A DNA stretch of 64,000 nt from Parcubacteria group bacterium (GTDB lineage: Bacteria; Patescibacteriota; Minisyncoccia; Moranbacterales; UBA2206). The DNA is taken from positions 115,966 to 179,965 of the forward strand of contig JBAZYF010000002.1 of the NCBI GenBank assembly GCA_041659505.1. Reading direction: 5' to 3'. Every line of letters starts with the position of its first letter. Positions within the stretch are counted from its first letter, which is position 1. The notes beneath the pieces are model-generated. The model worked only from the letters and a program-made list of their open reading frames with translations. It ran no database searches and was not told the origin of the DNA. Below are positions 13,183 to 56,510 of this stretch, in pieces. Both the position numbers and the translations under genes were made by a program.

Positions 13183-14360
13183 TGTTGATTAATAAGTCTA
13201 ATTAAATTTTCCTCAAAAATATCCTCCCAATCAAATTCCTTAGCATATGCGATTGCATTTTTGCGATACTCTTGCAAAGTTTTTTCATCTTTGAGAAGCG
13301 CAATTATTTTCTCCGCGATTTCCTCCTTGTCTTGACTAATCACAAATCCGCAACGCCTTTTCTCAATTTCCCTGGCATTGTGCGCCACGTCAGAGAGCAA
13401 AATTGGTAGCCCGCCCGCCAGATAAGCTTTGACCTTTCCCGGATCAGAAAAATTGGTAAAACTCAAGGCGCCACTTTCGTCATATTTTTCGTACAGCGCC
13501 ACGGCCGCCGCACATTTGGAAAGCATTTTTTCCACCTCGCTATGCTTTTCCACGTAACCCACAAACTCCACGTTCTTTCCTATATCCAATTTTTTAGTTT
13601 GCTTTTTTAATGCTTCCAGATAGCTTCCATCGCCGATTACTAAAAACTGAAAATCGGGCAACTGTCCGATTACGGCAGGCACTGCCCTCAAGGCATACTG
13701 CACTCCCTGCTTTTCCAAAATATGCCCCATAAACACCAGGGTGTGTTTTTCAATTTGAGAAAAATCCAGACGCGGAAAACGGGAAAACCAAATGCCGATC
13801 GGAACGGTGATTTGATTGCCACCGGAAAAGCCGAAATATTCTTTTCGCGCCTGCGCCATCCGCGGAGAGAGATTCCACGTTTCATCAGCATGCCGCACAC
13901 AAAACTGATCCAGTTTATGATAGAAATAATTGAGAATTTTAATATCAAATCTTTTGGGATTATAATCTATCACGTAGTAGATCACTTTTTTGGTTTTGCC
14001 GAAAAAGCGCAAAACTATGCCGGAAAAAGCATTGAGATTATCGCAACCGATAAACAGATCGCTCTTGGGCATTTTTTGCCAGGTCCAAAAAATATTCAGC
14101 GCGATGTCGATTGAATAGACCAACAGGGCGAAATTCTTTTTGATCTTACGATACTTTTCTTCTTTTAACTCCCCCTTTTCATAAACCTCATATCCAGAAC
14201 CGGACAATTTTTCATCCCAAAAAAGCGGATGCCCGATAAACAAAAGCTTGCCGACACTATTATTCAGCAAATATTCCCGCAAATCCTGCGCCGGACCGGT
14301 CGCATAGACATGCGTGGCAATGACAATATTTTTAGCTTTCAGTTCTAGCATTATTTTCAC
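13179..14360 (-). CDS. Glycosyltransferase family 1 (GT4-like)
   Basis: GT-B C-terminal sugar-donor binding region (SFTNFSDPGKVKAYLAGGLPILLSD); GTG start overlaps repeat copy A. Confidence 0.75.
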   Translation of the reverse strand: MKIMLELKAKNIVIATHVYATGPAQDLREYLLNNSVGKLLFIGHPLFWDEKLSGSGYEVYEKGELKEEKYRKIKKNFALLVYSIDIALNIFWTWQKMPKSDLFIGCDNLNAFSGIVLRFFGKTKKVIYYVIDYNPKRFDIKILNYFYHKLDQFCVRHADETWNLSPRMAQARKEYFGFSGGNQITVPIGIWFSRFPRLDFSQIEKHTLVFMGHILEKQGVQYALRAVPAVIGQLPDFQFLVIGDGSYLEALKKQTKKLDIGKNVEFVGYVEKHSEVEKMLSKCAAAVALYEKYDESGALSFTNFSDPGKVKAYLAGGLPILLSDVAHNAREIEKRRCGFVISQDKEEIAEKIIALLKDEKTLQEYRKNAIAYAKEFDWEDIFEENLIRLINQQ

Positions 14361-14386
14361 GACTTACGCATTTGCCCAAGTCAGCC
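14358..14386 (+). repeat. Copy A of dispersed palindromic element (CACGACTTACGCATTTGCCCAAGTCAGCC)
   Basis: Near-identical (34/36) to copy F at 56478; shares core with 46634, 48396, 54243, 55369. Confidence 0.7.
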
Positions 14387-14459
14387 ATATTTTCTCTCTT
14401 ACTATTTTAACATAACATATCGCAACGTGCCAAAAATTTCAAAATTAGCGTTTCGATTA

Positions 14460-15209
14460 TTATTTTTTACTTATCGCAAGCAAAACCGGACGATTTTTTC
14501 GCGGTGTCGCGCCTTGCGAGATAAAAAAAACATACCAAACCAGATCGACCAGCTTAGTGATCAGGGGCAATATGATTTTTTTCAGCAGTTTTCCCATAAA
14601 CCGCTTATCATCAGGCGCATAAGCCACCAATTCCTCAATCGCAATATTTTTCGCCTCAAATCCGGACAAAAGCAAAACTTCCCGCATTGATTCGGGAGTA
14701 TAGAGAATTTCGTGGGTGATGTCCGTATAGCGATCATGCATTCCTCCGATAGCATTATTGCCATTGGGAATATTGACGATCAACTTTCCGCCGGCTTTGA
14801 GCGCATCTTTCAAAATACTCAAGAACGGCACTATCTGTTTTTTTTCAATATGCTCCACCACATGATAGATAGTGATCACATCAAAAAAATCCGCCCTATC
14901 TTTCAGATACTCTTCGGCAGAAATTTTTTCTACCACAAAACCTTGCTTTTCGCAAAAAGCCACGCACTCAGGAGAGATGTCGATCCCCTTGATATTTCGA
15001 TAGCCCAGCTTGGAAAAAGTATGCAGATTTTGCCCCAATCCGCAACCGATGTCCAGAAACCGGCTTTCCTTATTTTCAGGCAAAGCTGCGCCAATATACT
15101 TTTTGTTCCAAAAATAGAGCCGTTCATACTCTTCGTCGATGTTATTTTCCCGCTCCGAAGAAGAATAGATCAGTGACATATAGTTTTCAAATATTTCTTT
15201 TTTCGGCAT
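14460..15209 (-). CDS. Class I SAM-dependent methyltransferase
   Basis: Motif I FLDIGCGLGQN, LKAGGKLIVN. Confidence 0.7.
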   Translation of the reverse strand: MPKKEIFENYMSLIYSSSERENNIDEEYERLYFWNKKYIGAALPENKESRFLDIGCGLGQNLHTFSKLGYRNIKGIDISPECVAFCEKQGFVVEKISAEEYLKDRADFFDVITIYHVVEHIEKKQIVPFLSILKDALKAGGKLIVNIPNGNNAIGGMHDRYTDITHEILYTPESMREVLLLSGFEAKNIAIEELVAYAPDDKRFMGKLLKKIILPLITKLVDLVWYVFFISQGATPRKNRPVLLAISKK

Positions 15210-16356
15210 ATTGTTCCGCGATTAAATTTAGATACTGCCTGGCAATCTTTTTCGGCTCAACGCATCTGCTGAGTTGCTCTCTCTGCTCACCTGTTTTTAT
15301 TTTGGCATTTTCATAGTTTTGCATAATGGATTCTATTTTTTCCATAAACTCATTTTCATTATTCTGTTCGATAACAATATTGTCATAATCCGGAAATGTT
15401 TTCAGATACTGCGACACTCCGCAATTCCTCGTCACGATCGTCGGCACATTCAAAAAAATCGCCTCTACGGCCGTATAGAGGAAGGCTTCAAATTGGGAGG
15501 GTAAGACGACTATTTTTGCGTTTCTGATGATTGCTGAACGCCTCGCCTTCTCTCCAGTGTAGCCAAAAAAAATCACTTGACTATTCCCGCGAAAATAGCT
15601 GGCTAGTTTCTCAAGATCAGCTCCTAAGATAACAAAATACATGTAGGGGTAGGTGGCTAATATTTTTGCTATTATTCTTTTCAAAACCTCACCGCCTTTC
15701 TTTTTCTGCACGCTTCCATAGAAAAGAAAATACTCCTTGCCTCGAAGATTCTCCGGAAAATCCTCATCACCAAGCTCAACATTTTCCAATGCGGCAGGAA
15801 GTGGAGCGATATTCATTTTGGAAAAATCAATGTTCCACAGAAAAAAAGAATAAACACCCATAAGCGAAGAACTGGTTAGAATCACCCGGGCTCTTTTAAC
15901 AATGAACTTCTCAAAAAAATTCAGAACGGAGCGAAAAATGAAATATTTCAGACCGCGCCTTCTTTCCAAGGCATACACTTCATGACTCGTCCCATGCAAC
16001 CGCGCGAGATAGTGATACTTTTTTCCCAAGAGCATTTTAGCTAAGATACAATAACCGCCAAAAACTTCATCTTCAATAACATCGTAATTTTGATAATTTT
16101 TTAAAAGCCAGCGAGAAGTGGCCCAATGAACGCCTAGCAGATTTTTCCGATTAGCTTTCACCCTAATCACTTCCACTCCGTCTTCCATCCCTCTCTTGTT
16201 TTTTTCAAAAGAAACCGCCAACACAGAAACACAGATTGATGGATCGCAACTTTTAATCGCTCTCGCCATCTCGTACACATATGTTCCGATGCCCCCCGCT
16301 CCGGTTTCTGGCGGATATTCAGGGGAGATAAATAATATGCTTTTCATAAAAAACAT
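15187..16356 (-). CDS. Glycosyltransferase family 1 (GT4-like)
   Basis: N-terminal ISPEYPPETGAGGIGTYV typical of GT4 acceptor domain; GT-B fold length. Confidence 0.75.
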   Translation of the reverse strand: MFFMKSILFISPEYPPETGAGGIGTYVYEMARAIKSCDPSICVSVLAVSFEKNKRGMEDGVEVIRVKANRKNLLGVHWATSRWLLKNYQNYDVIEDEVFGGYCILAKMLLGKKYHYLARLHGTSHEVYALERRRGLKYFIFRSVLNFFEKFIVKRARVILTSSSLMGVYSFFLWNIDFSKMNIAPLPAALENVELGDEDFPENLRGKEYFLFYGSVQKKKGGEVLKRIIAKILATYPYMYFVILGADLEKLASYFRGNSQVIFFGYTGEKARRSAIIRNAKIVVLPSQFEAFLYTAVEAIFLNVPTIVTRNCGVSQYLKTFPDYDNIVIEQNNENEFMEKIESIMQNYENAKIKTGEQREQLSRCVEPKKIARQYLNLIAEQYAEKRNI

Positions 16357-16359
16357 AAT

Positions 16360-18204
16360 TTAGCCTAAAAAATACTTCTTATGCCAATAATTAAAATTAA
16401 ACACTCGCAAAAGCTTAAAGCGATGATCGGCTTTGCCGTTCATATGTTCGGTGTGCATCAATTTCACATATTCCAGATCAAAAAATCCGTTATCGTGAAA
16501 TAAATACTCCTGAAATAAATCTTTCAATTCGTTTCGAATCCACTTGTCCAATGGTACACCAAAACCGCTTTTTTTCCTATAGATCAGGTCTTTGTCGAAA
16601 TATTTGCTCGCCAATTTCTTTAAAACATACTTTTGCTCGCCGTTTCTGATTTTCCAATTTCCCGAAAGCGAAAAAGCAAATTCCGCCAAATCCTTATCCA
16701 AAAGTGGATTGCGCATCTCAAGCGCTGTCGCCATTGTCGCCCGATCTCCTTTCACAAGATACCAATCAGGCAATTGAATTTTGCAATCAAGAAATAAGCT
16801 TTTATTGATTGCGTCTTTTTGTCCAAAAGTATTTTCATATTTTCGCGCTTCTGCAAAAATTGACTTCAAGCTTATCGGTTTTTTCAATAATTTTTCCGCT
16901 TCTTCCGGCAGAAAACTGCCACTGCCAAAAATAAACTGCCTTTGGGAAAAATCTAACCCAAAACTGTCAAGTAATTTGTGATAAGGATTATTTTTAGGGG
17001 TTATTTTTTTTCCGATACTCGCCAAAAAACTCAAATAGCGATTATTTTCAATAAACTCTTGCGCTTTGTATTTTGAATACCCCCCAAAAAGCTCATCTCC
17101 GCCGTCGCCACTTAAAACTACTGTGATTTTATCTTTGGCAAATTTGGAAACAAAATAGAGTGGAATAATTGCCGCGTCTGCCATTGGCTCGTCCAAATAA
17201 TCCAAAATTTCCAAAAAATTTTCCCGCACGAGCTGGTCTTCAAAGTAGCAAAGATTATAGTTTATGCCAAGTTTTGACGCCACCCGCTGAGCATACTCCG
17301 ATTCGTCCGCTTCCTTGGAATTTTTGTAGCACACCGTGAAAGAATTCACTTGCGGAGAAAAATCGGAAAGATATTTCGTGATTAGACTGCTATCCACTCC
17401 CCCGCTTAGAAAAACGCCAAGTGGCACATCTGACATTAGTCTTTTTTCGACTGATTTTTTGATCAAATCCTCTGTTTTGGCCAGTACCTCGTTTTCTGAA
17501 TAATTATTATTTATTTTAATTTCTTCCAGCTTCCAAAAATCGTACTTATTAATTATTTTCCATTTTTTCAGATCAAACTGAAAAGTAGTTGCCGGTTCCA
17601 GTTTTTTTATTTTATCTAAAATACTATTAGGCGAAGGAATGTAACCATAAAACAGATATTTTGCCAAAGACAACTCGTCGATCTTTAATTTTTGTTTAAT
17701 TTCGGGATTTTTAATGATGGCCTTTAGCTCAGATGCGAAGCAAAAAATTTCTTCGTCTAAATAGTAATACAACGGTTTTTTGCCGAAATGATCGCGCGCT
17801 AGTGTCAAGAGATTATTTTTCCGATCATAAATAGCAAACGCAAACATCCCCTCAATTTTTTCCACAATTTTTTGCCCAAATTCCTCATAGCCATGAATCA
17901 AAATTTCCGTGTCCGATTTGCTTTTCCATTGGTAACTTGTTCCTAATTCTTTTTTGATAGTTTGGTAATTATAGATTTCGCCATTGAAAATTATAGCGAC
18001 ACTTCCATCTTCATTAAACATCGGTTGTCTTCCTGCCTGCGAAAGATCGATGATGGAAAGCCGTCTTTGCCCTAAGGCAAGATTATTAATAAAAAAATCA
18101 CCCGATTGGTCGGGGCCTCTTTTTTTGAGCGTTTCAAGCATTTCCAAAAACAACTCTCGATTTACCGGAGTGCTTCTATTTAGTTGTCCTAAAATTCCAC
18201 ACAT
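16360..18204 (-). CDS. asnB: Asparagine synthase (glutamine-hydrolysing) family amidotransferase
   Basis: N-terminal MCGILG (Ntn Cys nucleophile), SGGxDSS PP-loop (FLSGGVDSS); 614 aa. Confidence 0.85.
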   Translation of the reverse strand: MCGILGQLNRSTPVNRELFLEMLETLKKRGPDQSGDFFINNLALGQRRLSIIDLSQAGRQPMFNEDGSVAIIFNGEIYNYQTIKKELGTSYQWKSKSDTEILIHGYEEFGQKIVEKIEGMFAFAIYDRKNNLLTLARDHFGKKPLYYYLDEEIFCFASELKAIIKNPEIKQKLKIDELSLAKYLFYGYIPSPNSILDKIKKLEPATTFQFDLKKWKIINKYDFWKLEEIKINNNYSENEVLAKTEDLIKKSVEKRLMSDVPLGVFLSGGVDSSLITKYLSDFSPQVNSFTVCYKNSKEADESEYAQRVASKLGINYNLCYFEDQLVRENFLEILDYLDEPMADAAIIPLYFVSKFAKDKITVVLSGDGGDELFGGYSKYKAQEFIENNRYLSFLASIGKKITPKNNPYHKLLDSFGLDFSQRQFIFGSGSFLPEEAEKLLKKPISLKSIFAEARKYENTFGQKDAINKSLFLDCKIQLPDWYLVKGDRATMATALEMRNPLLDKDLAEFAFSLSGNWKIRNGEQKYVLKKLASKYFDKDLIYRKKSGFGVPLDKWIRNELKDLFQEYLFHDNGFFDLEYVKLMHTEHMNGKADHRFKLLRVFNFNYWHKKYFLG

Positions 18205-19627: not shown

Positions 19628-19658
19628 TATCTGTTTTTTATTCCGATTTAATCCATAT

Positions 19659-22174: not shown

Positions 22175-22366
22175 GAGGTCTCTACGAAATACGAGTCCGT
22201 ACCTACCTGCCGGTGGCTCACCGCCAAAAACTATGGCCGACGGAGCGCAGACAGGCGAATATACGAATCCGCTTTGATCAAGTTATAAATTAAAAAAACG
22301 ACTTCTAGGTTTCATTTTCTATAATAAACCAAAATGCTATTTTCTCCAAGGCTCTAAAAACACTTA
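22175..22366 (-). promoter_or_regulatory. GC-rich structured 5' leader / candidate cis-regulatory RNA upstream of the B12-radical SAM gene
   Basis: 192-nt intergenic gap inside otherwise tightly packed operon; locally GC-rich with several short stems (e.g. GGCGGTGAGCCACCGGC); identity not established. Confidence 0.3.
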
Positions 22367-23380: not shown

Positions 23381-23439
23381 TCACCCTGCTTACTTCCATA
23401 TTATACACCCACCAAACAAAATTGCGAAACTCTCCGTGC

Positions 23440-27487: not shown

Positions 27488-27512
27488 AAAAAATTTTAAA
27501 TATTTATAATTT

Positions 27513-43227: not shown

Positions 43228-43275
43228 AGTTCCTCAAACTAACTGCTAATTATATTGCTCAAATAATATCTTTTT

Positions 43276-45222: not shown

Positions 45223-45271
45223 TCCGCACAATTATTCATACATTCGTATAAATTCTTAATTCGTAGAGAAT

Positions 45272-46609
45272 ATGCTCGATCTGACCAGGGAAATCAAGCT
45301 AGATGAAAAAAATACTTTGCGCTACCGACGCTGGCAGGCTTTTTTCTATGCCTTTTGTTTTGCCAGTGCGCTCTATGTCGCTTATTTCATCTTTTTTCCC
45401 ACCCAAGAATTTAACTTTTCCTTCACAATGTTAACGTCCAACAAGGGCAATGCGGTCAACCCAAGAACTACTGATGGAACATTAATCACTGACGGAAAAT
45501 TCTCCGCCGGACAAAAAAGTTTTTTCGACACCTCGCTGGTCGGCAGTTTTTCTAAGATTAAGCTGAGCTTCACGCCAAATAGACTATCCACAAGCCCAGA
45601 AAATTCTCACATCGATTTGCGCAAATCCTATCGCGCGTTTCTTTTTCCCGAGGGTAGTCCAGTTGGTTTTAAAAATGGCACATTAGTTAAGCATGAAAAC
45701 GCTTTCTATCTTATCTCTGCGGGAAAACTGAGAAAATTCAAAGATCGGTCGACACTTTTTGCGCTTGGTTTTTCGGAAAGTGCCTTTATCGATACTGACG
45801 AGCAAGATTTGAGCTACACTCCACTGGATGAAGAAATCACAGATACAAAAATTTACCCAGCAGATTCACTCTTCAAAATCGACGACGTTTATTATCGTTC
45901 AAGTACTGACGGAAGCTTGGAAAAATTCAGCAGCGCAGGGGCTTTTCACAGTCAGTATGAGGAAAATTTTGCCATCCCCAAAAATGCCGATTTTCTTAAT
46001 GCTTACGCTGTCGCTAAAAATCCGATCGGTTTTGCTGATAGCTCCCTAATTTCCTATGGCACATCCGCTTTTATCGTCAGTAGGGATAAAATTTATCCGA
46101 TCGGCGACCCAGATATCTTTCTGAATCAGGGCTATGATTGGAATGATATCATAATAGCAAGCAGTGATGAGCTTTCGCTCTATACTAAAGAAAAATTATT
46201 TACGCTCACTAGTGTGCATCCTGATGGAACAATCTTTTTCGCAACAGACACCCAAAAATGGTACCAAATAGAAAATGGGCAAAAGCATGAACTGCCTTCG
46301 GAAAAAATTGCCAATTCCTGGCTCAAAAAACATCCGATCTCTGTCCTGGCAAAAAGTCTCGAGGTTTTGGGCGGTTGTGATTTGCAAAAAGAAACTTTCG
46401 GTGGCTACGCCTGCCTAATTCCCCTGAACGACACGGAAGATACGGCGGGAAAATACTATGAATTCACTTTTGTGGCAAAAAATGACCTGAAAATTGACAA
46501 CCTCAATCTGCTCTATGAAAAAAATATGACCATGCAAAATCTCAAACTCGCCCTGCGCAATATGATTTTACGGATAAAGGCTCGTTATGGAATTCAAAGC
46601 GCACCATAG
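45272..46609 (+). CDS. Hypothetical N-terminally anchored extracytoplasmic protein
   Basis: Single N-terminal TM (WQAFFYAFCFASALYVAYFIFF) then ~400-aa soluble domain; downstream of ArnT-like gene. Confidence 0.55.
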   Translation: MLDLTREIKLDEKNTLRYRRWQAFFYAFCFASALYVAYFIFFPTQEFNFSFTMLTSNKGNAVNPRTTDGTLITDGKFSAGQKSFFDTSLVGSFSKIKLSFTPNRLSTSPENSHIDLRKSYRAFLFPEGSPVGFKNGTLVKHENAFYLISAGKLRKFKDRSTLFALGFSESAFIDTDEQDLSYTPLDEEITDTKIYPADSLFKIDDVYYRSSTDGSLEKFSSAGAFHSQYEENFAIPKNADFLNAYAVAKNPIGFADSSLISYGTSAFIVSRDKIYPIGDPDIFLNQGYDWNDIIIASSDELSLYTKEKLFTLTSVHPDGTIFFATDTQKWYQIENGQKHELPSEKIANSWLKKHPISVLAKSLEVLGGCDLQKETFGGYACLIPLNDTEDTAGKYYEFTFVAKNDLKIDNLNLLYEKNMTMQNLKLALRNMILRIKARYGIQSAP

Positions 46610-46633
46610 CAATGCCACAAAATTAATAATTTT

Positions 46634-46663
46634 AGGACTTACGCGATTGCCCGAGTCAGCCGG
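46634..46663 (+). repeat. Copy B of dispersed palindromic element (AGGACTTACGCGATTGCCCGAGTCAGCCGG)
   Basis: Shared core with other five copies. Confidence 0.65.
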
Positions 46664-46817
46664 TTTTTCTAAAAAAATCTTGTCTGAGAACGCCTTTTTT
46701 CTTCAAAATTTTCCATTGGTTGCCTTTGATAGAGGGAAAATTTTGAAAAGAAAAAAGAGCGTTCGAGTTATTTTTTTAGAAAATCCGACTACGAGGTGAA
46801 ATGCGTAACTCCTAAAT

Positions 46818-47243
46818 ATGCAACATTCTATGCAAATATCCTTGAAACAATTCGACAAAAATACCATTGCAATTTTCTACAAACTCTTGCACGACAGCCT
46901 ATTCGTGTTGATTATTTTTTTCAGCCTCACACTTATTGCTGAAGCGGTTCTGCCAGGCATCATTATTTCTCACATCGGCTTTTCTAAGATTGTTATTGTA
47001 CTCCTGCTCAATATTTTTCTGATAAAGTTCTTGGCAGAAAAAATCAGTAATGAAAATATAGCCAAAAAAAATGACGCAAAAAATAAAAGCCTGGCAAAAT
47101 TTGCCAGCCCTTTCATCATCCTTGGCGCGCTACTACTCTTTAATGATCAACTGGGAATGAACCTATTTCTCAATCTTTTCATCATCCTAATTTGCGGAAT
47201 CATCGGATATTTGAGTTATCAAATTTTGTTCAACGAGGAATAA
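46818..47243 (+). CDS. Small hypothetical membrane protein (141 aa, ~4 TM)
   Basis: ORF track; hydrophobic helices. Confidence 0.5.
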   Translation: MQHSMQISLKQFDKNTIAIFYKLLHDSLFVLIIFFSLTLIAEAVLPGIIISHIGFSKIVIVLLLNIFLIKFLAEKISNENIAKKNDAKNKSLAKFASPFIILGALLLFNDQLGMNLFLNLFIILICGIIGYLSYQILFNEE

Positions 47244-47272
47244 TCAGGGCTTACTCGTTTGCCGAGATAAGC

Positions 47273-48388
47273 TTAACTTTTCAAATATTCCAAAGTTTCA
47301 CGTGCGCATTTTTCCCAAGAAAACTTTTTGATCTGCTCAGCGCCTTTTGCAATCATCTCACTGCGCAGACTCTCATTCCCCAATACCTGCTCGATTTTCT
47401 CCGCCAAGTCAGCGGGATTTTTTTCGTCAAAATATAGCGGCGCATCGCCCCCCACTTCTCCTAGGCTCGAATTTAGGGCACAAAGGAGTGGTACACGTGA
47501 AGCCAAAATCTCAAGCACGGGAATACCAAAACCTTCGTAGAGTGAAGGATAAACATAGACGCTCGCGCCACGGACCAATGTTCCCATATCGGCAAAAGTC
47601 AGTCGACCAGGTGTGATAATATCTTTTCGAAATGGGCTACTCGTAATTTTTTCAAATACACCATCAGACAGCCAAGCCCTTTCGCCGGCGATAACCAATT
47701 TAATCTCCGATTTAGTTTTTTTCTTGAACAGATCATATGCCTCTACCAGCACACCCAAATTTTTCCGTGGCTGGATTGCTCCGGCATATAAAAGATATTC
47801 CCCTGCGATTCCCATCCGCTCCTTGGTTTTGTTTTCGATTTCCAAATTGCGCAGCACAGCAAACACTTCCGCGTCAAAGCCATGATAGATCACTTTGATT
47901 TTTTTCTCGGAAACGTCCGGATAAAACCGTAAAATATCTTTTTTGGTCGACTCGGAAATGGCAATGATTTTATCCGCTTTCCTAAACGCCCAATTCCCCA
48001 AAAGATTAAGTTTGAATAAATCTTTTTTGGGGAAATACTCGGGAAAATATTTATAGGCCAAATCATGCGCCGTCACCACAATTTTCATCTTTCCAATGCA
48101 ACGAAGCGGAATATTGTGCATTGGCATCCAAAGCACTTCTGGCTTGTCACGGCACAGCTCTCCTGCCAACCAACCTTGCGTCCAAAAAACCGGACGATTT
48201 TTTTGTTTGATCCTGTAATTGGAAAAATTCGGCGACTTAAGCTCAGGGTTAAATTCATTCTTATGATATAGCAAAAATTCACTGGTCGGATCCAACGCCC
48301 CAAAAAATTTCAACATATTATGGATATACACACGCGTCCCATCGATCCGCTCTGCGTCGAGATCCGCTACTTGAATGCCAATTTTCAT
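47273..48388 (-). CDS. Glycosyltransferase family 1 (GT4-like)
   Basis: YVYPSLYEGFGIPVLEILASRVPLLCA EX7E region. Confidence 0.75.
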   Translation of the reverse strand: MKIGIQVADLDAERIDGTRVYIHNMLKFFGALDPTSEFLLYHKNEFNPELKSPNFSNYRIKQKNRPVFWTQGWLAGELCRDKPEVLWMPMHNIPLRCIGKMKIVVTAHDLAYKYFPEYFPKKDLFKLNLLGNWAFRKADKIIAISESTKKDILRFYPDVSEKKIKVIYHGFDAEVFAVLRNLEIENKTKERMGIAGEYLLYAGAIQPRKNLGVLVEAYDLFKKKTKSEIKLVIAGERAWLSDGVFEKITSSPFRKDIITPGRLTFADMGTLVRGASVYVYPSLYEGFGIPVLEILASRVPLLCALNSSLGEVGGDAPLYFDEKNPADLAEKIEQVLGNESLRSEMIAKGAEQIKKFSWEKCARETLEYLKS

Positions 48389-48395
48389 TTTTTTT

Positions 48396-48534
48396 AGGAC
48401 TTACGCGTTTGCCAAAGAGTTGTTCGCACAAGCATTTCTCTTTACACAAAAGGCTAATAGTAAACCAAAATCAAACTGACCGAAATGAGGAAACGTCGCT
48501 TTTAGAATAATTCCTTGGTAAATGCATAAGTCCT
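48396..48534 (+). repeat. Copy C: ~139-nt hairpin element with imperfect 21-nt terminal inverted repeats (AGGACTTACGCGTTTGCCAAAGAG … CCTTGGTAAATGCATAAGTCCT); homologous to 54243..54380
   Basis: Ends pair with G-U-compatible substitutions; internal blocks (GTTGTTCGCAC, GGTAAACCA, CTTTTAGAATAATT) shared with copy D. Confidence 0.65.
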
Positions 48535-48547
48535 GATTTAATTCAAA

Positions 48548-50032
48548 TTAAATTAATTCACCTTTTTTAATTTTCCTGGCAAAATCCTTAAAGCCTTCTT
48601 GTTTGTCTTGTTCAAACATCGCCTTCACCGCGATTGGCGTTGTGGCCGGTGATTTCCAGTTGTAGATAGATTTCAGGTTTTTGCGCATCACGTAGGCGGT
48701 TTTGACCAGAAAATTCGTGTCCCCTTGCACTGGACAAGCGTAGATGTATTCACAAGGATCGCCGCTTTGATTGTAGGTACTTTTGATTTCAAAAGAGATC
48801 GGTAGACCCTTCTCCTTCATCACGCGATAAGATTTAACCGGGTTGGGATAGTGGTTGAAATTTTTGTTCAAGTGCTTGATCTCTTCATTTTTGATATTTT
48901 TAAGCTGGTTGCTTTCAATCATCACCACCCGCCCTAGTTTTTTGTCATAGAAACTCGCTCCACCCTTTTGGGGCTTGATCGGATTTTGCGCCACGATCTC
49001 CATCACCATCGAATAACCCTTCTTTCCTAGATCAAGAGCAAGCGTCAAACTAGGCAGGTCGATCGAGCACGTCAAATAACCCAAGTCTTCGACATTATAG
49101 GATAAAAGGTCATCGTGCTTGGCCAGCAGTTTTTCAAAATCTTTATTGGAAATCGATTCGCGTTTACTGGTATTTTTTTTATCCACGCGAAAAACCACAT
49201 TGTCGTGGATTTTTTGCATGATCAACTGTCCATGATTGTGCAGTCGCTTATTCTTCTCTGTTGTCCGGTCATAATAGAGACAACCTTCTTTGATATAGAT
49301 ACCATGAAAACTGCGTTGGATCATAAAATAAACTTTTTTTGGATCAAGTCCGAAAAAATTGAACCGTTTGAATTCTTCCAAAATTTCCTCGGCTGTCTGT
49401 TCATTGAGGATTATGATCGTGCTCTGCTTGGCCAGCACTTTTTTGGGATTCTTGTGATTCCGTTTAGCAATTTGCACCACGTCATAAGCCATCTGAAGCA
49501 TGTGCCTGTTGCCAAGAGAAATATTCATCAGACTCTTGGGATCCTTGCCAGTCACTTCCAACACTTTTTCTTCTGTGATATTCTCATTGATCTTTTTCGT
49601 TTCCTCGTCCAAACGCTTCCCTTCCAATCCCGCTTTCTTAGCTTCACGGATCGCTTCTTGGCGCATATGAAAGACGACTTCCGTCAAGGAAAACTGACTG
49701 AGATTTAGGAGGTATTTTGTTCCCAGTCCCAAGCGCGTCGCTTCGCCGGCCGCTGTATGTTCCCAGAGGAATTTTCCGGCTAAAATCGCTTTTTCCGCCG
49801 GAAGTGTTTTAATCTTATCATCATCCAGGGTGATAATCTTACTTTGATCGATCGGTTCAAGCTCGTCAAAATTTTCATAGCAGTTGATTGCCTTTTCATC
49901 CCGTTTAATATCCTTCAACGTAATTTTTTTCAGATCGGCGTAATAGTTCCTGAGCATCCATTCGATATAGCGGAGAACAGAGATACGATACTCTTCAAAG
50001 GAGTCCAGGTGAATCTTGGGTTTTGTGTTCAT
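48548..50032 (-). CDS. UDP-sugar pyrophosphorylase, UDPGP (eukaryotic-type UGPase/UAP) family
   Basis: Nucleotide-binding loop LAGKFLWEHTAAGEATRLGLGTKY resembling L(A)GGxGTRLG of UDPGP family; 494 aa. Confidence 0.55.
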   Translation of the reverse strand: MNTKPKIHLDSFEEYRISVLRYIEWMLRNYYADLKKITLKDIKRDEKAINCYENFDELEPIDQSKIITLDDDKIKTLPAEKAILAGKFLWEHTAAGEATRLGLGTKYLLNLSQFSLTEVVFHMRQEAIREAKKAGLEGKRLDEETKKINENITEEKVLEVTGKDPKSLMNISLGNRHMLQMAYDVVQIAKRNHKNPKKVLAKQSTIIILNEQTAEEILEEFKRFNFFGLDPKKVYFMIQRSFHGIYIKEGCLYYDRTTEKNKRLHNHGQLIMQKIHDNVVFRVDKKNTSKRESISNKDFEKLLAKHDDLLSYNVEDLGYLTCSIDLPSLTLALDLGKKGYSMVMEIVAQNPIKPQKGGASFYDKKLGRVVMIESNQLKNIKNEEIKHLNKNFNHYPNPVKSYRVMKEKGLPISFEIKSTYNQSGDPCEYIYACPVQGDTNFLVKTAYVMRKNLKSIYNWKSPATTPIAVKAMFEQDKQEGFKDFARKIKKGELI

Positions 50033-50126
50033 TAGTTTTATGCTTTTGGGCCTTAAAGGTTAAACGCAGGTTTTTGGCCTGCGTTTGAATTATACAATAT
50101 TTTTTACTCCGAGTGCAATACAAGCG

Positions 50127-50531
50127 CTAACAGATATCGCAAACAGGATATTTCGTGCCTCTTTTGACAAAATTCGTTTCCACGTCTTTAAGATCAAACA
50201 TTTTTTTAAAATAGTTCACTACAAAAGCAGTATCCATCCCATTTTTGCAAGTATAAGCGTCAATGCTGACAAAACCGCGCGCTGGAAAGGTGTGGACGCT
50301 AATGTGACTCTCCATAATCACCACAAATCCGCTCCAACCACCCGGGTCTTTAATCTTATTCGATTTGGCAAAATAAATTTCTGGTTCGCTCAAGCGATGC
50401 ATCCCTAAAAGTTCAGGGAGTTCAGTGAGACTTCGCAAAACCAACTCTTTATCATTCAGCTTTTCAGGATCTCCCTGATATCCGTCGAGCATCAGGTGCT
50501 CTCCGAAATTGCACGTGTTTTTCTCTTCCAT
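50127..50531 (-). CDS. speH: S-adenosylmethionine decarboxylase proenzyme (pyruvoyl-dependent, SpeH/SpeD class 1)
   Basis: Self-cleavage motif IMESHISVHTFP (ES↓S) characteristic of AdoMetDC. Confidence 0.75.
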   Translation of the reverse strand: MEEKNTCNFGEHLMLDGYQGDPEKLNDKELVLRSLTELPELLGMHRLSEPEIYFAKSNKIKDPGGWSGFVVIMESHISVHTFPARGFVSIDAYTCKNGMDTAFVVNYFKKMFDLKDVETNFVKRGTKYPVCDIC

Positions 50532-50592
50532 TTTTACTTAAAATAATTAAACTATTTATAAAATGCTCACGCAGAATACATTAAATTTTAGC

Positions 50593-51534
50593 TTATGTCA
50601 ATATTTGCAAATCCCAAAGCTTGGTACTGAGATATTTCTCACCGCGATCAGGAAAAATGACGCACATCCGGCCAGAGATATCGCGCTTGGAAAGTTCCAC
50701 AGCCGCCTGCATCGCTGCGCCAGATGACATTCCTACAAAAATCCCCTCTTCATTGGCAATCCGTCGCGCCATTACAAACGCTTTTTCACTTTCAATCGTC
50801 ACAAATTCATCAATCTGACTCTTGTCATAAATCGCCGGCACAATCGCTTCTTCCATATTTTTCAGTCCTTGGATATAGTGGCCTTTTTCCGGATAAGCGC
50901 ACACGATTTTAATTTGGGGGTTATATTCTTTCAAATATTTTCCCACGCCCATGATCGTACCGGAAGTGCCAAGCGAGGAGACGAAATAATCGATTTTGCC
51001 TGTCATATCTTCCCAAATTTCTTTGGCTGTCGTTTCATAGTGCGCGATCTTATTATACTCGTTGGAAAATTGATCCGGCATAAAATATTTTTCCGGATTG
51101 TTTTTGACAAGCTCGCGTGCTTTCACAATGGCGCCGTCCGTGCCTTTGTTCTCATCAGTCAATATTATTTTTGCCCCGAAGGCCTCGAGCATTTTTCTTC
51201 GTTCCATCGAAACAGCCGCGCTCATTACAATTTCGACTGAATAGCCAAGCACCGCGCCAATCATTGCGATGCCGATTCCGGTATTGCCTGACGTCGGCTC
51301 AATGATTGTTTTCTTTTTAGTCAACTCGCCATTTTCAATCGCCACCTCAAGCATTTTGAGCGCCACGCGATCCTTGATACTTCCACCTGGATTTTGCCCT
51401 TCCAGCTTGGCAAAGATTTCCAAGTTCTTATTTGGATTAATTTTGTTAATTTTCACCAGTGGAGTATTGCCGATTGTTTCTAGTATATTTTGATATAACA
51501 TAATTTTAGTGTATAAAAATAAAATCCCGAACAA
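50593..51534 (-). CDS. cysK: Cysteine synthase (O-acetylserine sulfhydrylase)
   Basis: PLP-binding lysine region GGSIKDRVALKMLE, TSGNTGIGIAM glycine loop. Confidence 0.85.
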   Translation of the reverse strand: MFGILFLYTKIMLYQNILETIGNTPLVKINKINPNKNLEIFAKLEGQNPGGSIKDRVALKMLEVAIENGELTKKKTIIEPTSGNTGIGIAMIGAVLGYSVEIVMSAAVSMERRKMLEAFGAKIILTDENKGTDGAIVKARELVKNNPEKYFMPDQFSNEYNKIAHYETTAKEIWEDMTGKIDYFVSSLGTSGTIMGVGKYLKEYNPQIKIVCAYPEKGHYIQGLKNMEEAIVPAIYDKSQIDEFVTIESEKAFVMARRIANEEGIFVGMSSGAAMQAAVELSKRDISGRMCVIFPDRGEKYLSTKLWDLQILT

Positions 51535-51779
51535 TTTCGGGAGCCAGTGTTAATTCTTTTTTCTTTAATGCGTCAACAGAAAAAAGCCGCTCCCGAAACA
51601 ATCAAGTGATTCGAGCAACAGCAAAAAGAAACATTGCGAAAAATTTGAGCTTCAAGCTTTTGGGGATTCATTTTTTTGTCTCAAATTAATTACGTAATTA
51701 ATTACTTACATGAAATGCGTAGCAAAATTGGCTATCAATAGTTTTAATCTACCACAGATCAACGTTTATTACAACAAGA

Positions 51780-51808
51780 TTGCTATTTGTTCAATTTGAC
51801 GCTATAAT
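51780..51808 (+). promoter_or_regulatory. Sigma70-type promoter: -35 TTGCTA, 17-bp spacer, -10 TATAAT upstream of prfA
   Basis: Hexamers and spacing read directly; ~24 nt upstream of prfA ATG. Confidence 0.5.
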
Positions 51809-51831
51809 ACAAAGAGTATCAATCCAGCCCT

Positions 51832-52896
51832 ATGCGCGAACAAATCGAACAGATCAAAGCCGAATATGCCCAAATTGCCCAAGAACTCAGTAATCCTGAG
51901 GTGGTTTTTGATACGCAAAAAATGACGCAACTCTCCAAAAAACAGGCCGAACTGAATGAAGTGATGCGCAAAATCGAAGAATTGGAGCTCTTGGAGAAAA
52001 ATATGCGCGAAAATGCGGAAATTGTCAACAGCGAAGAAGATGGTGAGATGAAACAGATGGCCATGGATGAGAACGTCTCCTTGGCTGGAAAAAAGGTTAT
52101 CCTGGAAAAAGAATTGGAAACTCTGCTTTTGCCCAAGGATCCACATGACTCCAAGAATGTCATCGTGGAGATCCGTGCCGGAGCCGGCGGTGATGAATCG
52201 GCTCTGTTTGCCGCGAGCCTTTTTCGGATGTATTCACATTACGCGGAAAAAAACCGTTGGCAAGTAAACTTGCTCAACTCCCACCAGAACGGCGTAGGCG
52301 GATTCAAAGAAGTCGTCTTTGAAATCAATGGCGCAGGGGTTTATGGCAAGATGAAATATGAATCAGGCGTCCATCGTGTCCAACGTATCCCGGAAACAGA
52401 AAAAAATGGCCGTATCCACACTTCCACGGCAACGGTCGCCGTTCTCCCGGAAGCTGAAGAATTTGATTTTAAGATTGAAGAAAAAGATATCCGCATCGAC
52501 ACTTTCTGCTCTTCCGGACCAGGCGGGCAATCCGTCAACACTACCAAGTCCGCAGTGCGCATCACTCACATTCCGACCGGCGTGATTGTTTCTTGCCAAG
52601 ACGAAAAATCGCAACTGAAAAATAAGGACAAGGCGATGAAGGTGCTCCGCTCGCGTCTTTTGCAGGCAGAAGAAGAAAAACGCGCAAAAGAACTGGGAGA
52701 TCAAAGGAAGTCTCAAATCGGCACCGGTGACCGCTCGGAAAAAATACGCACCTACAACTTTCCCCAAGATCGCATCACTGACCACCGCATCAAGCAAAAC
52801 TGGAGCAATATCAGTGGAATTCTAGAAGGCAACATCGAACCAATAATTACTGCCCTCCAAGAAGAGGACACTAAGATGAGGTTAGGCAATCTTTAA
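51832..52896 (+). CDS. prfA: Peptide chain release factor 1
   Basis: GGQ motif ([11 protein letters not shown]), PxT-type recognition region, 354 aa. Confidence 0.95.
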
Positions 52897-52900
52897 TTTT

Positions 52901-53773
52901 GTGGCTACGATCCAAACCATCTTCGATGAATATCGGTCAAAAATAGATAGTCTTGACCTGGAACTTCTCATCGCTCACGAACTCAAGCAGTCTCGTGAGT
53001 TTGTTTTAACCTATCCGGAAAAAACAGTAACCAGCAAACAGGAAACAGCGATCAGTAAACTACTTGCGAGAAGATTGAGACATGAACCCATTGCGTATAT
53101 ACTAGGACACAAGGAATTTTATGGCCTAGACTTCAAAGTTACAAAAGACACACTCATCCCCCGCCCAGAAACAGAACTGCTGGTCGAAAAAGCGCTGCAA
53201 GAAATATCAAACGCCAAAAATGCCCCGTTAAATATCATCGATGTCGGAACAGGATCGGGAAATATTATAATTTCTGTCGCCAAAAATTTAAAAAATAAAC
53301 AAATAAACTATTTCGGTATCGATATTTCTGAAAAAGCCTTAGCAATCGCAAAGTACAATGCTAAAAAAAATAATTTAACAAAAATTAAATTTATCGAATC
53401 AAATTTGCTCGACTGTTTTTTAAAAAACAATGAAACAATAAAACAATTTAACAATTTAATTATTCTCGCTAATCTCCCCTATCTCTCAAAAGAAATCTAT
53501 TCCGCCACTGAAGCGAACGTAAAAAACTTTGAACCAAAATCCGCATTATTTAGTCCGAAGGCTGGACTGGCACATTATGAAAAACTGCTAAAGCAGATTA
53601 GGCTTCTTGCTATTCACTGTTCACTGTTCACTGTTCACTGCCTCCTAGAAATCAGTCCCGAACAAAAAAAATCCCTAGGCATTTTGATTAAAGAAATCCT
53701 GCCTTCAGCTAAAATTAAATTCGAGAAAGATCTGGCTGGAAAATGGCGTGTTTGCCTAATCAGTTTGGATTAA
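52901..53773 (+). CDS. prmC: Release factor glutamine N5-methyltransferase
   Basis: Immediately downstream of prfA; SAM motif IDVGTGSGNI, catalytic NPPY-variant (LANLPY). Confidence 0.85.
   Translation: MATIQTIFDEYRSKIDSLDLELLIAHELKQSREFVLTYPEKTVTSKQETAISKLLARRLRHEPIAYILGHKEFYGLDFKVTKDTLIPRPETELLVEKALQEISNAKNAPLNIIDVGTGSGNIIISVAKNLKNKQINYFGIDISEKALAIAKYNAKKNNLTKIKFIESNLLDCFLKNNETIKQFNNLIILANLPYLSKEIYSATEANVKNFEPKSALFSPKAGLAHYEKLLKQIRLLAIHCSLFTVHCLLEISPEQKKSLGILIKEILPSAKIKFEKDLAGKWRVCLISLD
53613..53640. repeat. Heptanucleotide tandem repeat (TTCACTG)x4 inside prmC coding sequence
   Basis: Seen in sequence; encodes HCSLFTVHC. Confidence 0.85.
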
Positions 53774-53794
53774 AAAATCCTTCCTAATAAACAA

Positions 53795-53822
53795 AAAACC
53801 GCGTGTTAGCGGTTTTTTGTTT
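53795..53822 (+). terminator. Rho-independent terminator after prfA-prmC (AACCGC-GTGTTA-GCGGTT + TTTTGTTTT)
   Basis: GC stem + U-tract just after prmC stop. Confidence 0.65.
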
Positions 53823-53912
53823 TATATCCAACGTTGATATAAGTCCTATGTTGACAACTTGCCAAACACAGAACGTTCCCCGAACGAATCGGGAAATCAC
53901 ACTATAAAAAGA

Positions 53913-54005
53913 CTATTTTTTCTTCTTCTTTGTAGCTTTTTTCTTTGTAACTTTTTTAACAGTCTTCTTTACAGCTTTTTTTGCTGCTTTTTTCTTTGCT
54001 GCCAT
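53913..54005 (-). CDS. Small (30 aa) Lys/Ala-rich basic protein (histone H1-tail-like), candidate
   Basis: Manual: ATG preceded by SD AAAGGATGGTG; translation MAAKKKAAKKAVKKTVKKVTKKKATKKKKK; below ORF-track size cutoff. Confidence 0.35.
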   Translation of the reverse strand: MAAKKKAAKKAVKKTVKKVTKKKATKKKKK

Positions 54006-54242
54006 GTTAGTTCACCATCCTTTCTATTTTTATTTTTTTCCAAAGTTTCTTATTTGAAACTCTCTGAAATATTTTTTAATGATTTTGTTTCGACCTTTGT
54101 TTTTATGAAAAATATTTTTTAAATTTAAAAAATATTTTTCATAAATAAATTATATACCACCACTAAAAATTATGCAAGAGTAAAAAGTTATCCACAGGCA
54201 AATATTTTTTTATTTTTAAAAATAAAAAAAACAAATTACAAC

Positions 54243-54380
54243 AGGACTTACGCATGCGCCAAAAAGTTGTTCGCACGTTCATCTCTTTTAGCATCTCAGC
54301 CCTCTGGTAAACCAGCAAGGGAAAACCAAAATGAAAAAACCGTGCTTTTGAGAATAATTTTTTGGCGCATGCGTAAGTCT
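54243..54380 (+). repeat. Copy D: ~138-nt hairpin element with perfect 21-bp terminal inverted repeats (GGACTTACGCATGCGCCAAAAA … TTTTTGGCGCATGCGTAAGTC)
   Basis: Seen in sequence; homologous internally to copy C. Confidence 0.7.
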
Positions 54381-54597
54381 AACCCAAAAAAGATTCGTCA
54401 TAAAAAAATATTTATCTGATCTTTAAAAAAAATAAATACTCCAAAATTTATCCGCACATTTTTGTCATTTATACCAGAACCTAAATAGCCAAAATTGTCT
54501 AGTTGACGCCCTTCCCAGCTTTGCTAAAATTTAGTATTAGAAACCCGCTTCAACGAAAGCACATTAAAAACTTAAACTAGAAAGGAAGGTGAAAACT

Positions 54598-55233
54598 ATG
54601 GAATCCAACCAAGAATCGAACGACAACCCGAACAAGGAAGAAGAAATGGCTGATGAATTTGGAGACTCCCCGACTACGGCAAAGCAATGGTTTCAGGATA
54701 ATTTGAGGATCATTGTCAGTATTCTTGTTGTTGTTATCATCGCCGCCGGAATCTATTCTTACTCTAACCGCGCCCAAAATGTCGATCAGACAGAACAGAC
54801 TCAACAGAGTGACATTCTCAAGGATTTGGCAAACAATGCCGGTACGGAAGAAAAGACAACGCCAAGTGACAATACTGCGACTTCTAATGCGGATAAGACA
54901 ACTAAGACGTCTTCGGTAACAACCAGCCAGGAAACTGACCAATCTTTTGTCGAAACAGCCGGTAAGGGAGATGGAACGACCAAGCTTGCCAGAAAAGCAT
55001 TGGCAGATTATTTGGAAAAAAATCCTGATTCCTCACTCACCCCAGAACACAAGATCTATATTGAAGATTATCTGAGAAAAAATGTAGGTCATAAGGGAGG
55101 AGTAAAAATAGGAACATCAGTAGAATTTTCCAAAAGCCTAATTTCCGACGCAATCACGAAATCCAAAACTCTAACTGCCGGGCAACTCAAAAACTTGCAC
55201 AAATATGCCGTCAGAGTGCCATCGTTATCCTAG
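54598..55233 (+). CDS. Single-pass membrane protein with acidic N-terminus, Ser/Thr-rich linker and ~80-aa C-terminal globular domain
   Basis: ATG at 54598 with SD AAGGAAGGTG (track starts at GTG 54589); TM LRIIVSILVVVIIAAGIYSY. Confidence 0.6.
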   Translation: MESNQESNDNPNKEEEMADEFGDSPTTAKQWFQDNLRIIVSILVVVIIAAGIYSYSNRAQNVDQTEQTQQSDILKDLANNAGTEEKTTPSDNTATSNADKTTKTSSVTTSQETDQSFVETAGKGDGTTKLARKALADYLEKNPDSSLTPEHKIYIEDYLRKNVGHKGGVKIGTSVEFSKSLISDAITKSKTLTAGQLKNLHKYAVRVPSLS

Positions 55234-55320
55234 ATTTAAAAAAACCGATTTTATTATGAAATAAAATTCTACTGTTCTTTCCTTATAAGTCGAGTATATC
55301 ATTACTCCCTTTTATAAAAA

Positions 55321-55368
55321 CATAAAATCCCTCGTGGCCTCAGCGCCAAAAGGGATTTTATGTTTTTT
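55321..55368 (+). terminator. Rho-independent terminator (ATAAAATCCCT…AGGGATTTTAT + TTTTTT)
   Basis: 11-bp stem and U-run after + strand gene. Confidence 0.6.
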
Positions 55369-55393
55369 AGGAGTTACGTATTTACCCGAGTCC
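55369..55393 (+). repeat. Copy E (degenerate) of dispersed palindromic element (AGGAGTTACGTATTTACCCGAGTCC)
   Basis: Shares TTTTAGGA lead-in and CCCGAGTC core. Confidence 0.5.
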
Positions 55394-55412
55394 AAAAATA
55401 AGCTTTTTTATT

Positions 55413-56438
55413 TCAATCCTTTCTTGCGTCAGCTAATCGCCTATTTATCAAAAAAGAAATCGCTAGCATGATAGAAACTGCCAGGACAAGCGTGATGCTT
55501 TTGCCAAAAGTTCTTGTGTTCAGTGCGACAATGGCGATTAGCAGGGTCGCTAGATAATAATAACTTGCAATTTTTCTCTGCGACCAGCCAATCTCTAAGA
55601 GCTTATGATGTAAATGATTGTTATCCGCCCTAAAAATCGACTCACCTCTTCTCAGGCGCTCACCAATAACCCAAACAAAATCCACCAGCGGAATAGTTAG
55701 AACTAAAATAGCGGTGGCAATTTTTGTTCCGGAAAAAATTGCCAAGACAGCCAAAGAAAGCCCCATAAACATCGCTCCGGATGTGCCAGCAATGATCCGC
55801 GCCGGATTAAAATTAAACACCAAAAAACCCAAAAGCGTTCCCAAGAGGATACTAGAAATGATCGCTACCGGTGGCTGATTAACCTCAGGTTTGAAACTAA
55901 GGATAAAAATTGTCCCGACTGAAATCAGGCTGATTCCGCCCGACAATCCATCCACCCCATCTATCCAATTCACAGCATTAATCACAAAAACGATCCAGAA
56001 AACGACCAGCAACAGTGAGAAAAAAACCGTGCTACCCAGATTCAGATTGATCGTCCCGCCTACAAAAGGATTAGTCACATAGTAGATCCGCACCCCAAGA
56101 ACAAAAACTAAGACGGAAATCGCCATCTGAAAAAACAACTGCGTTTTCCAGTAAATTTCTTTGATGTCGTCTCGCACACCCACCAGCATGAGGACGATTG
56201 AAGCAAACATAAAACCGAACAGTTCCGGACTGATGACCAAATCGCGATTGAAAATGATAGCTAGATTGAAAGCCAGTACCATCGCGATTCCTCCGATGCG
56301 ATAGACACCTTTTTTGTGAATGTGTCGCTTGGCCAGACGTTTGCCCCAAGGAATTTTTTTGGCCAGCGGTAAAATAACTACAATAAGAAGAATAGTGAAA
56401 AAAAACGCTTCCAGGAATGGTACAAGATATTTTGGCAT
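55413..56438 (-). CDS. Polyprenyl-phosphate N-acetylhexosamine-1-phosphate transferase (GT4 family, WecA/TagO-like rather than MraY)
   Basis: NAVNWIDGVDGLSGG motif; N-terminal VYRIGGIAMV matches WecA/TagO (not MraY TPTMGG); 10-11 TM. Confidence 0.75.
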   Translation of the reverse strand: MPKYLVPFLEAFFFTILLIVVILPLAKKIPWGKRLAKRHIHKKGVYRIGGIAMVLAFNLAIIFNRDLVISPELFGFMFASIVLMLVGVRDDIKEIYWKTQLFFQMAISVLVFVLGVRIYYVTNPFVGGTINLNLGSTVFFSLLLVVFWIVFVINAVNWIDGVDGLSGGISLISVGTIFILSFKPEVNQPPVAIISSILLGTLLGFLVFNFNPARIIAGTSGAMFMGLSLAVLAIFSGTKIATAILVLTIPLVDFVWVIGERLRRGESIFRADNNHLHHKLLEIGWSQRKIASYYYLATLLIAIVALNTRTFGKSITLVLAVSIMLAISFLINRRLADARKD

Positions 56439-56477
56439 AGACCAGCATTACTGATTAACTTTCTGATTTTTTATTTT

Positions 56478-56510
56478 CACGACTTGCGCATTTGCCCGAG
56501 TCAGCCGTAC
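56478..56510 (+). repeat. Copy F of dispersed palindromic element (CACGACTTGCGCATTTGCCCGAGTCAGCCGTAC)
   Basis: 34/36 identical to copy A including TTATTTTCAC lead-in. Confidence 0.7.

Follow-up and report, generated by a model that had tools for sequence, protein, structure and literature searches.

Palindromic intergenic sequences in a Parcubacteria group bacterium are very probably the ends of miniature inverted-repeat transposable elements

Introduction

What are the short, partly palindromic sequences that recur between the genes of a Parcubacteria group bacterium? The DNA analysed here, called the window throughout, is a stretch of 64,000 nucleotides (contig JBAZYF010000002.1 of assembly GCA_041659505.1, positions 115,966 to 179,965 of the forward strand). 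An earlier note on it had pointed to six intergenic sites sharing a core, which we call copies A (14358), B (46634), C (48396), D (54243), E (55369) and F (56478). The genomes of the candidate phyla radiation (CPR)/Patescibacteria are small and tightly packed, and their mobile DNA has been little written about. We argue that the sites are very probably the ends of miniature inverted-repeat transposable elements (MITEs), that is, non-coding DNA transposons of ~60-185 bp with terminal inverted repeats (TIRs) of 17 bp and a target-site duplication (TSD) of 5 bp. The argument rests on the TIR and the TSD, on the small non-coding size and the dispersal of the copies, on near-identical copies elsewhere, and on the comparison of filled with empty sites.

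Results

Each site is one end of a longer element

A degenerate search of the window for the core GGACTTACGCRWTTGCCMRAGTC returned five sites with 0-3 mismatches (14360, 46635, 48397, 55370 and 56480). Five matches at ≤3 mismatches compare with 0.01 expected, and 0 of 100 dinucleotide shuffles reached five. Site 54243 has only the first ~12 nt of this core in common with the others; a profile built from the six copies retrieves all six, 54243 included, with E-values from 6e-13 to 6e-9. The reported identity of copies A and F at 34 of 36 positions, including TTATTTTCAC, is correct. The six plus-strand sites are thus real and far above chance, but each of them is the left end of a longer element.

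The sites had been said to lie all on the plus strand, which is wrong. The same profile detects minus-strand partner arms of copies B, C and D (46816-46799, 48537-48516 and 54379-54361), which sit 120-165 nt downstream of the left arms and were confirmed by an inverted-repeat search; copy F has a degenerate partner arm at 56538-56554. Both strands of each element carry the motif, which speaks against a replication-oriented motif. The 22-bp palindrome GACTT..AAGTC, proposed as the minimal unit, is restricted to the A/B/E/F variants and is found neither in C and D nor in the wider family described below, where the conserved unit is the 17-bp terminus TAGGACTTACGCGTTTG. The difference between copies that had been taken to preserve a base pair (U-A versus U-G) is one-sided and concerns one position. 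All six listed copies are there, but a seventh, remnant arm at 47245-47275 had been overlooked. The observation was real but half-seen. The MITE part of its interpretation was right, as TIRs, TSDs, insertion polymorphism and multi-copy dispersal attest, and the rest was not; the copies are not REP-like (after repetitive extragenic palindromes), being 77-182 bp long with TIR and TSD and not palindromes of 20-40 nt of the GTAG type.

The ends define a family that is abundant in metagenomes

Metagenomes were scanned with the pattern GACTTACGCRT-N(95-125)-AYGCGTAAGTC, both arms being required. At least 117 loci carry both arms, many of them from groundwater or aquifer samples; the family figures given here rest on these listed loci, of which 107 unique copies and 204 arms were analysed. 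The consensus ends are TAGGACTTACGCGTTTG…CAAACGCGTAAGTCCTA, each end being a 17-bp TIR, 5'-YAGGACTTACGCRTTTG, inverted at the opposite end. Positions that the pattern had left free are conserved: T, A and G stand at -3, -2 and -1 in 77-92% of the 204 listed arms, positions +12 to +14 read TTG in 80-92%, and there is no conservation farther out. Because positions outside the scan pattern are conserved, the metagenomic matches are not due to chance.

Behind these ends the interiors of the 107 unique listed copies fall into 47 unrelated sequence clusters; one cluster of 10 includes copies C and D of the window and a copy on contig L009. Window copies measure 77-182 bp, metagenomic copies 117-147 bp from core to core (limits that come from the scan pattern) and other pairs 59-154 bp, so that all are too short to have coding capacity for a transposase. 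The host contigs span 30.5-56.7% GC and, among the matches listed, the named ones belong to Moranbacteria or the "Patescibacteria group".

In species genomes the 22-mer of A, B and F has only three single matches among 185,579 (Opitutales, Anaerolineae and Pirellulaceae), which is chance level and implies that the window's genome, or the A/B/F variant, is not among the species representatives; viral contigs gave 0 matches to the 17-mer. The family as defined by its true ends is, on the other hand, abundant in metagenomes, and the concern that the motif might be missing elsewhere does not apply for that reason.

Copies are flanked by a 5-bp duplication

With every register tested, a 5-bp direct repeat directly outside YAGG...CCTR is perfect in 49 of the 107 listed copies, whereas 200 permutations of the flanks yielded 0.9 perfect repeats on average and never more than 6; the flanks are identical at a mean of 0.71, versus 0.33 after permutation. 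The 49 perfect TSDs comprise 45 different sequences, all AT-rich and without a sequence consensus. The flanks tag|GACTT...AAGTC|cta had made a TA-duplicating MITE of the IS630/mariner type a candidate, which was rejected as the flank-register test gives 5 bp. In 6 of 8 near-identical copies the sequence at one fixed end is CAGG (a CAG/CTA asymmetry), which assigns YA to the repeat and not to the TSD.

Among the matches listed, eight copies at least 93% identical stand in eight unrelated flanks, and two of the loci (L037 and L064) are on one contig. Near-identical copies at different sites mean that some subfamilies have moved recently. At several of the listed loci a second copy is present 1-4 kb away or less. 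Copies are intergenic in 63 of 68 cases, with a median of 34 nt to the neighbouring open reading frames (ORFs), again among the matches listed, and in every interior cluster the element is oriented about equally both ways relative to the flanking genes.

Orthologous junctions in relatives are empty

The relatives are contigs with an orthologue of the window's GT4 glycosyltransferase at 73-87% identity, and those showing empty sites (the Moranbacteria-like L009, L011, L129 and L131) have it at 80-87%. Where the window has the 141-bp copy C, the 494/498-amino-acid gene and the GT4 gene lie 1 and 13 nt apart in L011 and L131, with no element between them. At the place of the 182-bp copy B, 14-28 nt separate the 445/448-amino-acid gene from the small gene downstream of it in L009, L129 and L131, and in L011 the same gene pair overlaps as called, also without an element. 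In L009 and L011 members of the family are present, but at sites that are not orthologous; L007, L129, L130 and L131 have no family member in 13-21 kb. Conservation in related strains had been proposed as a check, and what the B and C sites show is insertion polymorphism and not conservation.

In the related Moranbacteria contig L007, the small gene beside GT4 is surrounded by intergenic sites (11100-11380 and 11820-11990), among them the one orthologous to B, that hold palindromic repeats of another kind, GTCATCCTGAGCGAAGC...GCTCAGGATGAC and CCCTCCTCGCC...AGGGAGAGGATGTC, unrelated to the family. It seems that different small repeats land at the same junctions.

A proposed transposase acting in trans

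These features would be accounted for if a DDE-type transposase, whose gene lies at another place in the genome or the community, bound the conserved termini and moved the element in trans, by cut-and-paste or by copying. Nothing would then constrain the interior, and many unrelated interiors could stand between identical ends. The placement near minus-strand gene starts is as described, with A 6 nt and F 39 nt upstream of start codons and C likewise at 6 nt. This nearness reflects AT-rich targets in a compact genome and not promoter function, since an AT-preferring element there lands in intergenic gaps of 1-30 nt.

Several observations weigh against this reading. No protein recurs near the elements across the listed 117 loci (an all-against-all comparison of 776 ORFs returned housekeeping clusters only). 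Pairs of TIRs 0.5-5 kb apart occur neither in the listed loci nor in the window, scans of the collections having been limited to pairs of ≤600 bp. Pfam and NCBIfam searches with 20 window ORFs found no transposase; those of 300-600 amino acids that were tested are glycosyltransferases, epimerases and a TPR protein. The 5'-YAGG termini differ from the canonical TG...CA of many DDE elements, and no insertion sequence (IS) family could be assigned. Flanks of the window copies match at only 2-4 of 5 bases and are alone no proof of a TSD. The remaining points are structural. Among the matches listed, 64% of the family interiors fold better than shuffled sequences, 35% being unstructured, and the C/D arms covary beyond the 17-bp TIR, with double changes in 11 of 27 stem pairs over 10 copies. 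Simple end-recognition by a transposase requires neither folding nor covariation.

We leave a minor share of probability to two variants, namely that the transposase is of a type not yet recognised in Patescibacteria, or that some subfamilies (C/D) have been exapted as a functional RNA or a host-factor site.

Hairpins, operators and chance

The strongest rival takes the copies for selected RNA or single-strand DNA hairpins that act on transcripts as stabilisers, processing sites, attenuators or terminators, mobility being secondary. Such a role has been argued for some REP, ERIC or Correia copies. Folding lends it some support: copies B, C and D form whole-length hairpins on either strand, very stable on both (z -3 to -10). 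Copy B has a minimum free energy of -72 kcal/mol and z-scores of -8 to -10 on both strands; those of C are -5.8 and -3.1, of D -9.7 and -8.2, and of F -3.0 and -3.4. Copies A (-1.2 and -1.9) and E fold no better than shuffles. The double changes in the C/D arms include several G-U pairs on one strand, the majority of interiors are more structured than shuffles, and B and C lie inside operons where the genes of relatives nearly abut. The C/D interior is asymmetric, ~70 nt long, and keeps invariant blocks (CGCA, GTA-AC, AACC and GCT-TT) across at least 10 contigs. Together with the covariation, these blocks keep a minor RNA or structural reading alive. The complementarity of the C/D arms could reflect hairpin selection (DNA or RNA), arm-to-arm correction or shared descent.

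Hairpins as the primary function are nevertheless unlikely. Orientation to the flanking genes is random in every subfamily, more than a third of the interiors are unstructured, some 47 interior clusters are unrelated to one another, and the conserved part, a 17-bp end plus TSD, is a DNA-level signature. In close relatives the genes are the same and the junctions between them have no element. The copies bear no T-run terminator signature, and of the 24 terminator-like sites predicted in 46000-57000 not one falls on a copy. Promoter-like sites number 22 against 23.5 expected, which is chance; one 9/12 match uses the outward TTGGCA of copy C. The Rfam search proposed in the earlier note gave 0 matches at the gathering threshold in the whole window (at E≤5 there is only miRNA-precursor noise, on B and D), and a tRNA/tmRNA search found none. 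A primary RNA role is disfavoured by the random orientation, the unstructured members and the lack of a terminator or promoter signal.

A second rival makes the copies a dyad-symmetric operator for a factor that co-regulates cell-envelope and glycosyltransferase genes. Copies A, C and F do lie 6-39 nt upstream of GT4 and MraY/WecA-like starts, and GACTTACGCGTAAGTC palindromes on contig L044, which is unrelated, are arrayed in a way that resembles a protein-binding array. Copies B, D and E, however, are not upstream of such genes, the motif is missing from the orthologous promoter or junction regions of relatives, and metagenomic ends are always paired, 100-150 nt apart with a TSD, beside unrelated housekeeping genes. 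We regard an operator as very improbable and close to refuted; the random orientation and the unstructured interiors count against the earlier proposal of a selected hairpin or dyad operator for the adjoining glycosyltransferase genes alike.

Chance likeness of AT-rich intergenic regions, or ordinary intrinsic terminators, could appeal to the AT-rich flanks and to the TTTTT after the mini-hairpin of B, and is refuted, with next to no probability left, by five matches against 0.01 expected, by at least 117 metagenomic loci alike at ends outside the scan pattern, and by terminator-like predictions that overlap no copy.

Other candidates were tried and rejected. Sigma-54, sigma-70 or Bacteroidetes-type minus-strand promoters upstream of A, C and F have unfit spacing by inspection, and hits are at chance level. 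No known RNA family matched. A short ORF in the C/D interior (MRKPCF*) has an ATG that is not conserved. Integron attC sites and CRISPR were dismissed as no core sites, arrays or cassette structure showed up and the neighbours are syntenic housekeeping genes.

Comparison with known elements

In how they work, the closest analogues of these presumed MITEs are the Correia/NEMIS elements and RUP, both of which have another TIR sequence, another TSD and another host. In Neisseria, Correia elements (NEMIS) are ~100-160 bp long, carry TIRs, occur in many intergenic copies, are often co-transcribed and form long hairpins; no cognate transposase is known for them. Their TIRs are 26 bp and of unrelated sequence and their duplication is TA, whereas here a 17-bp TAGGACTTACGCGTTTG is combined with a 5-bp AT-rich TSD in Patescibacteria. 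RUP, the repeat unit of pneumococcus, and further MITEs derived from IS630, Nezha among them, are short and non-autonomous, have TIRs and presumably depend on a resident transposase for mobilisation in trans. They too duplicate TA, while in the present family TA lies within the inverted repeat and the true duplication is 5 bp.

REPs are 20-40 nt long with a conserved GTAG-type 5' tetranucleotide, are not known to leave a TSD, and have an IS200-like RAYT gene alongside. Dispersed intergenic palindromes are common to REP/BIME elements, to the REPINs that RAYT transposases mobilise and to this family, whose members differ by their 77-182 bp with TIR and 5-bp TSD. No recurrent neighbouring protein that could be a REP/REPIN partner was found in the listed loci, and no genome-wide search aimed at RAYT was made. 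In plants, the superfamily of Stowaway and Tourist MITEs is set by TIR and TSD (TA, TAA) and many unrelated interiors occur, much like the ~47 interior clusters behind identical ends here; those elements are eukaryotic, with other TIRs and TSDs.

Tn3-derived inverted-repeat miniature elements (TIMEs) and the MITEs of IS families that duplicate 4-6 bp are likewise non-coding and bounded by TIRs. A 5-bp TSD is known in Tn3, the IS2 group of IS3, IS701, IS1380, ISH3 and IS1634. The ends of IS3, IS21 and Tn7 begin with TG or TGT, and Tn3-type ends are ~38 bp long and begin with GGGG. A TIME was rejected: the 5-bp TSD agrees, but the TIR is 17 bp and begins with YAGG, unlike Tn3 ends. A 5-bp duplication also occurs in the ISAjo2 group of IS1202, and IS1202-type ends begin with TG or TGT (PMC10132070). 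The YAGG ends of this family differ from the TG or TGT of IS3, IS21, Tn7 and IS1202. The combination of 5'-YAGG/CACG ends, 17 bp and a 5-bp TSD fits none of the IS families considered.

Host and significance

Assemblies of three samples contain contigs identical to the window, among them a 247 kb ENA contig (ERZ27247358 k141_1494080), and the closest named proteins are in metagenome-assembled genomes (MAGs) of the Parcubacteria group and Moranbacteria. The finding reveals no new kind of system. MITEs are a known kind of element; this family appears to be undescribed, and widespread in groundwater-type metagenomes. A literature search found no full text with the end sequence and none linking MITEs to Patescibacteria/CPR.

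Identical 17-bp ends across Patescibacteria hosts of 31-55% GC, some on near-identical copies, point to ongoing or recent transposition, and the MITE has probably been exchanged between lineages. The 17-bp end (search form TAGGACTTACGCRTTTG) gives a handle for finding the transposase responsible. Annotation and assembly of MAGs are affected because repeated palindromes break contigs, and the reading of gene expression because several copies stand between genes that abut, or nearly do, in relatives.

The copies in the window

Of the seven copies in the window, B, C and D are complete, F is short, and A, E and the arm at 47245 are decayed remnants. They occupy very small gaps between the genes of an uncultivated Patescibacteria (Parcubacteria/Moranbacteria-like) bacterium. 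Because the TIRs are mismatched, the TSDs degenerate and three copies truncated, they look like mostly old insertions.

Copy B (46633-46814) is complete, a 182-bp imperfect palindrome over its whole length. Its left TIR is TAGGACTTACGCGATTG (46633-46649) and its right TIR ...AAATGCGTAACTCCTA (46798-46814); the flanking 5-mers, AATTT and AATAT, match at 4 of 5 bases, and the second of them runs into the ATG (46818) with which the downstream gene of 137/141 amino acids starts. Copies C and D, both complete, belong to the C/D subfamily. Copy C (48395-48535, 141 bp) has a left TIR, TAGGACTTACGCGTTTG, equal to the consensus at 17 of 17 positions, a right TIR TAAATGCATAAGTCCTG, arms of 43 nt with 72% complementarity and flanks matching at 3 of 5. 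It stands between the stop codon of the 494-amino-acid gene (48548) and the ATG of a GT4 gene (48388), 6 nt from the latter, and has homologous copies in eight other contigs. Copy D (54242-54381, 140 bp) has a left TIR CAGGACTTACGCATGCG, a right TIR GCGCATGCGTAAGTC-TA with a 1-nt deletion, arms of 31 nt with 90% complementarity and flanks matching at 2 of 5. It lies in a long AT-rich spacer downstream of prfA-prmC and can be aligned with C, the L009 copy and others.

Copy F (56478-56554) is a short B-type copy of 77 bp, alignable with B at both ends and without the central part of B. On the left it ends in CACGACTTGCGCATTTG, on the right, in degenerate form, in TAAATGTGCAACTTCTA; the flanking 5-mers ATTTT and AATTT match at 4 of 5 and are of low complexity. 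It sits 39 nt upstream of the ATG (56438) of a MraY/WecA-like gene. Copy A (14358-14402), truncated or degenerate, has a left end CACGACTTACGCATTTG followed by a B/F-type subterminal CCCAAGTCAGCCATATTTTCTCTC; the inverted-repeat search found no recognisable right arm, and the ATG (14351) of a minus-strand GT4 glycosyltransferase gene is 6 nt away. Copy E (55368-55393) is a remnant, TAGGAGTTACGTATTTAC followed by CCGAGTCCAA, with no distant partner arm in the window; it has a terminator-like hairpin of a plus-strand 211-amino-acid gene on one side and, on the other, the stop codon (55413) at which the MraY/WecA-like gene ends. The seventh copy (47245-47275, CAGGGCTTACTCGTTTGCCGAGATAAGCTTA) matches the TIR at 14 of 17 positions, forms a mini-hairpin, gives a weak profile match at 47244-47265 and is placed between the convergent stop codons of the 137-amino-acid gene and a GT4 gene.

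Minor observations on the family and its surroundings

A variant end, CACGACTTACGC in place of TAGGACTTACGC, is found in copies A (14358-14367) and F (56478-56487) and on contigs L009 (9556-9566) and L065 (7611-7620), the last two being C/D-type copies. Copies with this end, whose terminal trinucleotide is different, may form a sub-lineage. Of the seven window copies, six are found in a 10 kb interval, and L012, L023, L066, L083 and L092 each have two copies 0.6-5.5 kb apart; this local clustering may reflect local hopping or permissive regions.

Nine members (L013, L059, L060, L063, L077, L086, L090, L095 and L100) enclose a second palindromic repeat, GTCATTCC-N-GGAATCC ... GGATTCC-N-GGAATGAC, which suggests chimeric or nested small repeats. 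In L063 (7970-8155) two members are joined end to end without a spacer, at the junction CCTA|TAGG, the second being only 55 bp long.

Three scan matches were set aside as non-members. Loci L091 and L121 are long perfect palindromes without TAG ends. The L044 match is a false positive of the scan: at 1920-2150 of this contig of 51% GC, perfect palindromes of 12-16 bp (GACTTACGCGTAAGTC / GCTTACGCGTAAGC) recur every ~41 nt. The array looks iteron- or operator-like and has a 9-nt core in common with the MITE end.

The terminator-like hairpin directly left of copy E (55316-55367, 23-nt arms with 91% complementarity, then a T run) has the look of an ordinary terminator downstream of the 211-amino-acid gene, outside the MITE family. 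Genes around the copies encode GT4 and GT2 glycosyltransferases and sugar epimerases, along with prfA-prmC and the MraY/WecA-like gene next to the dcw cluster. Positions 1-45000 are mostly one long minus-strand polysaccharide and cell-envelope cluster, in which the decayed copy A is the only copy; it comprises several GT2 and GT4 genes, at least four NAD-dependent sugar epimerases or dehydratases, a TPR protein and many ORFs without a family match.

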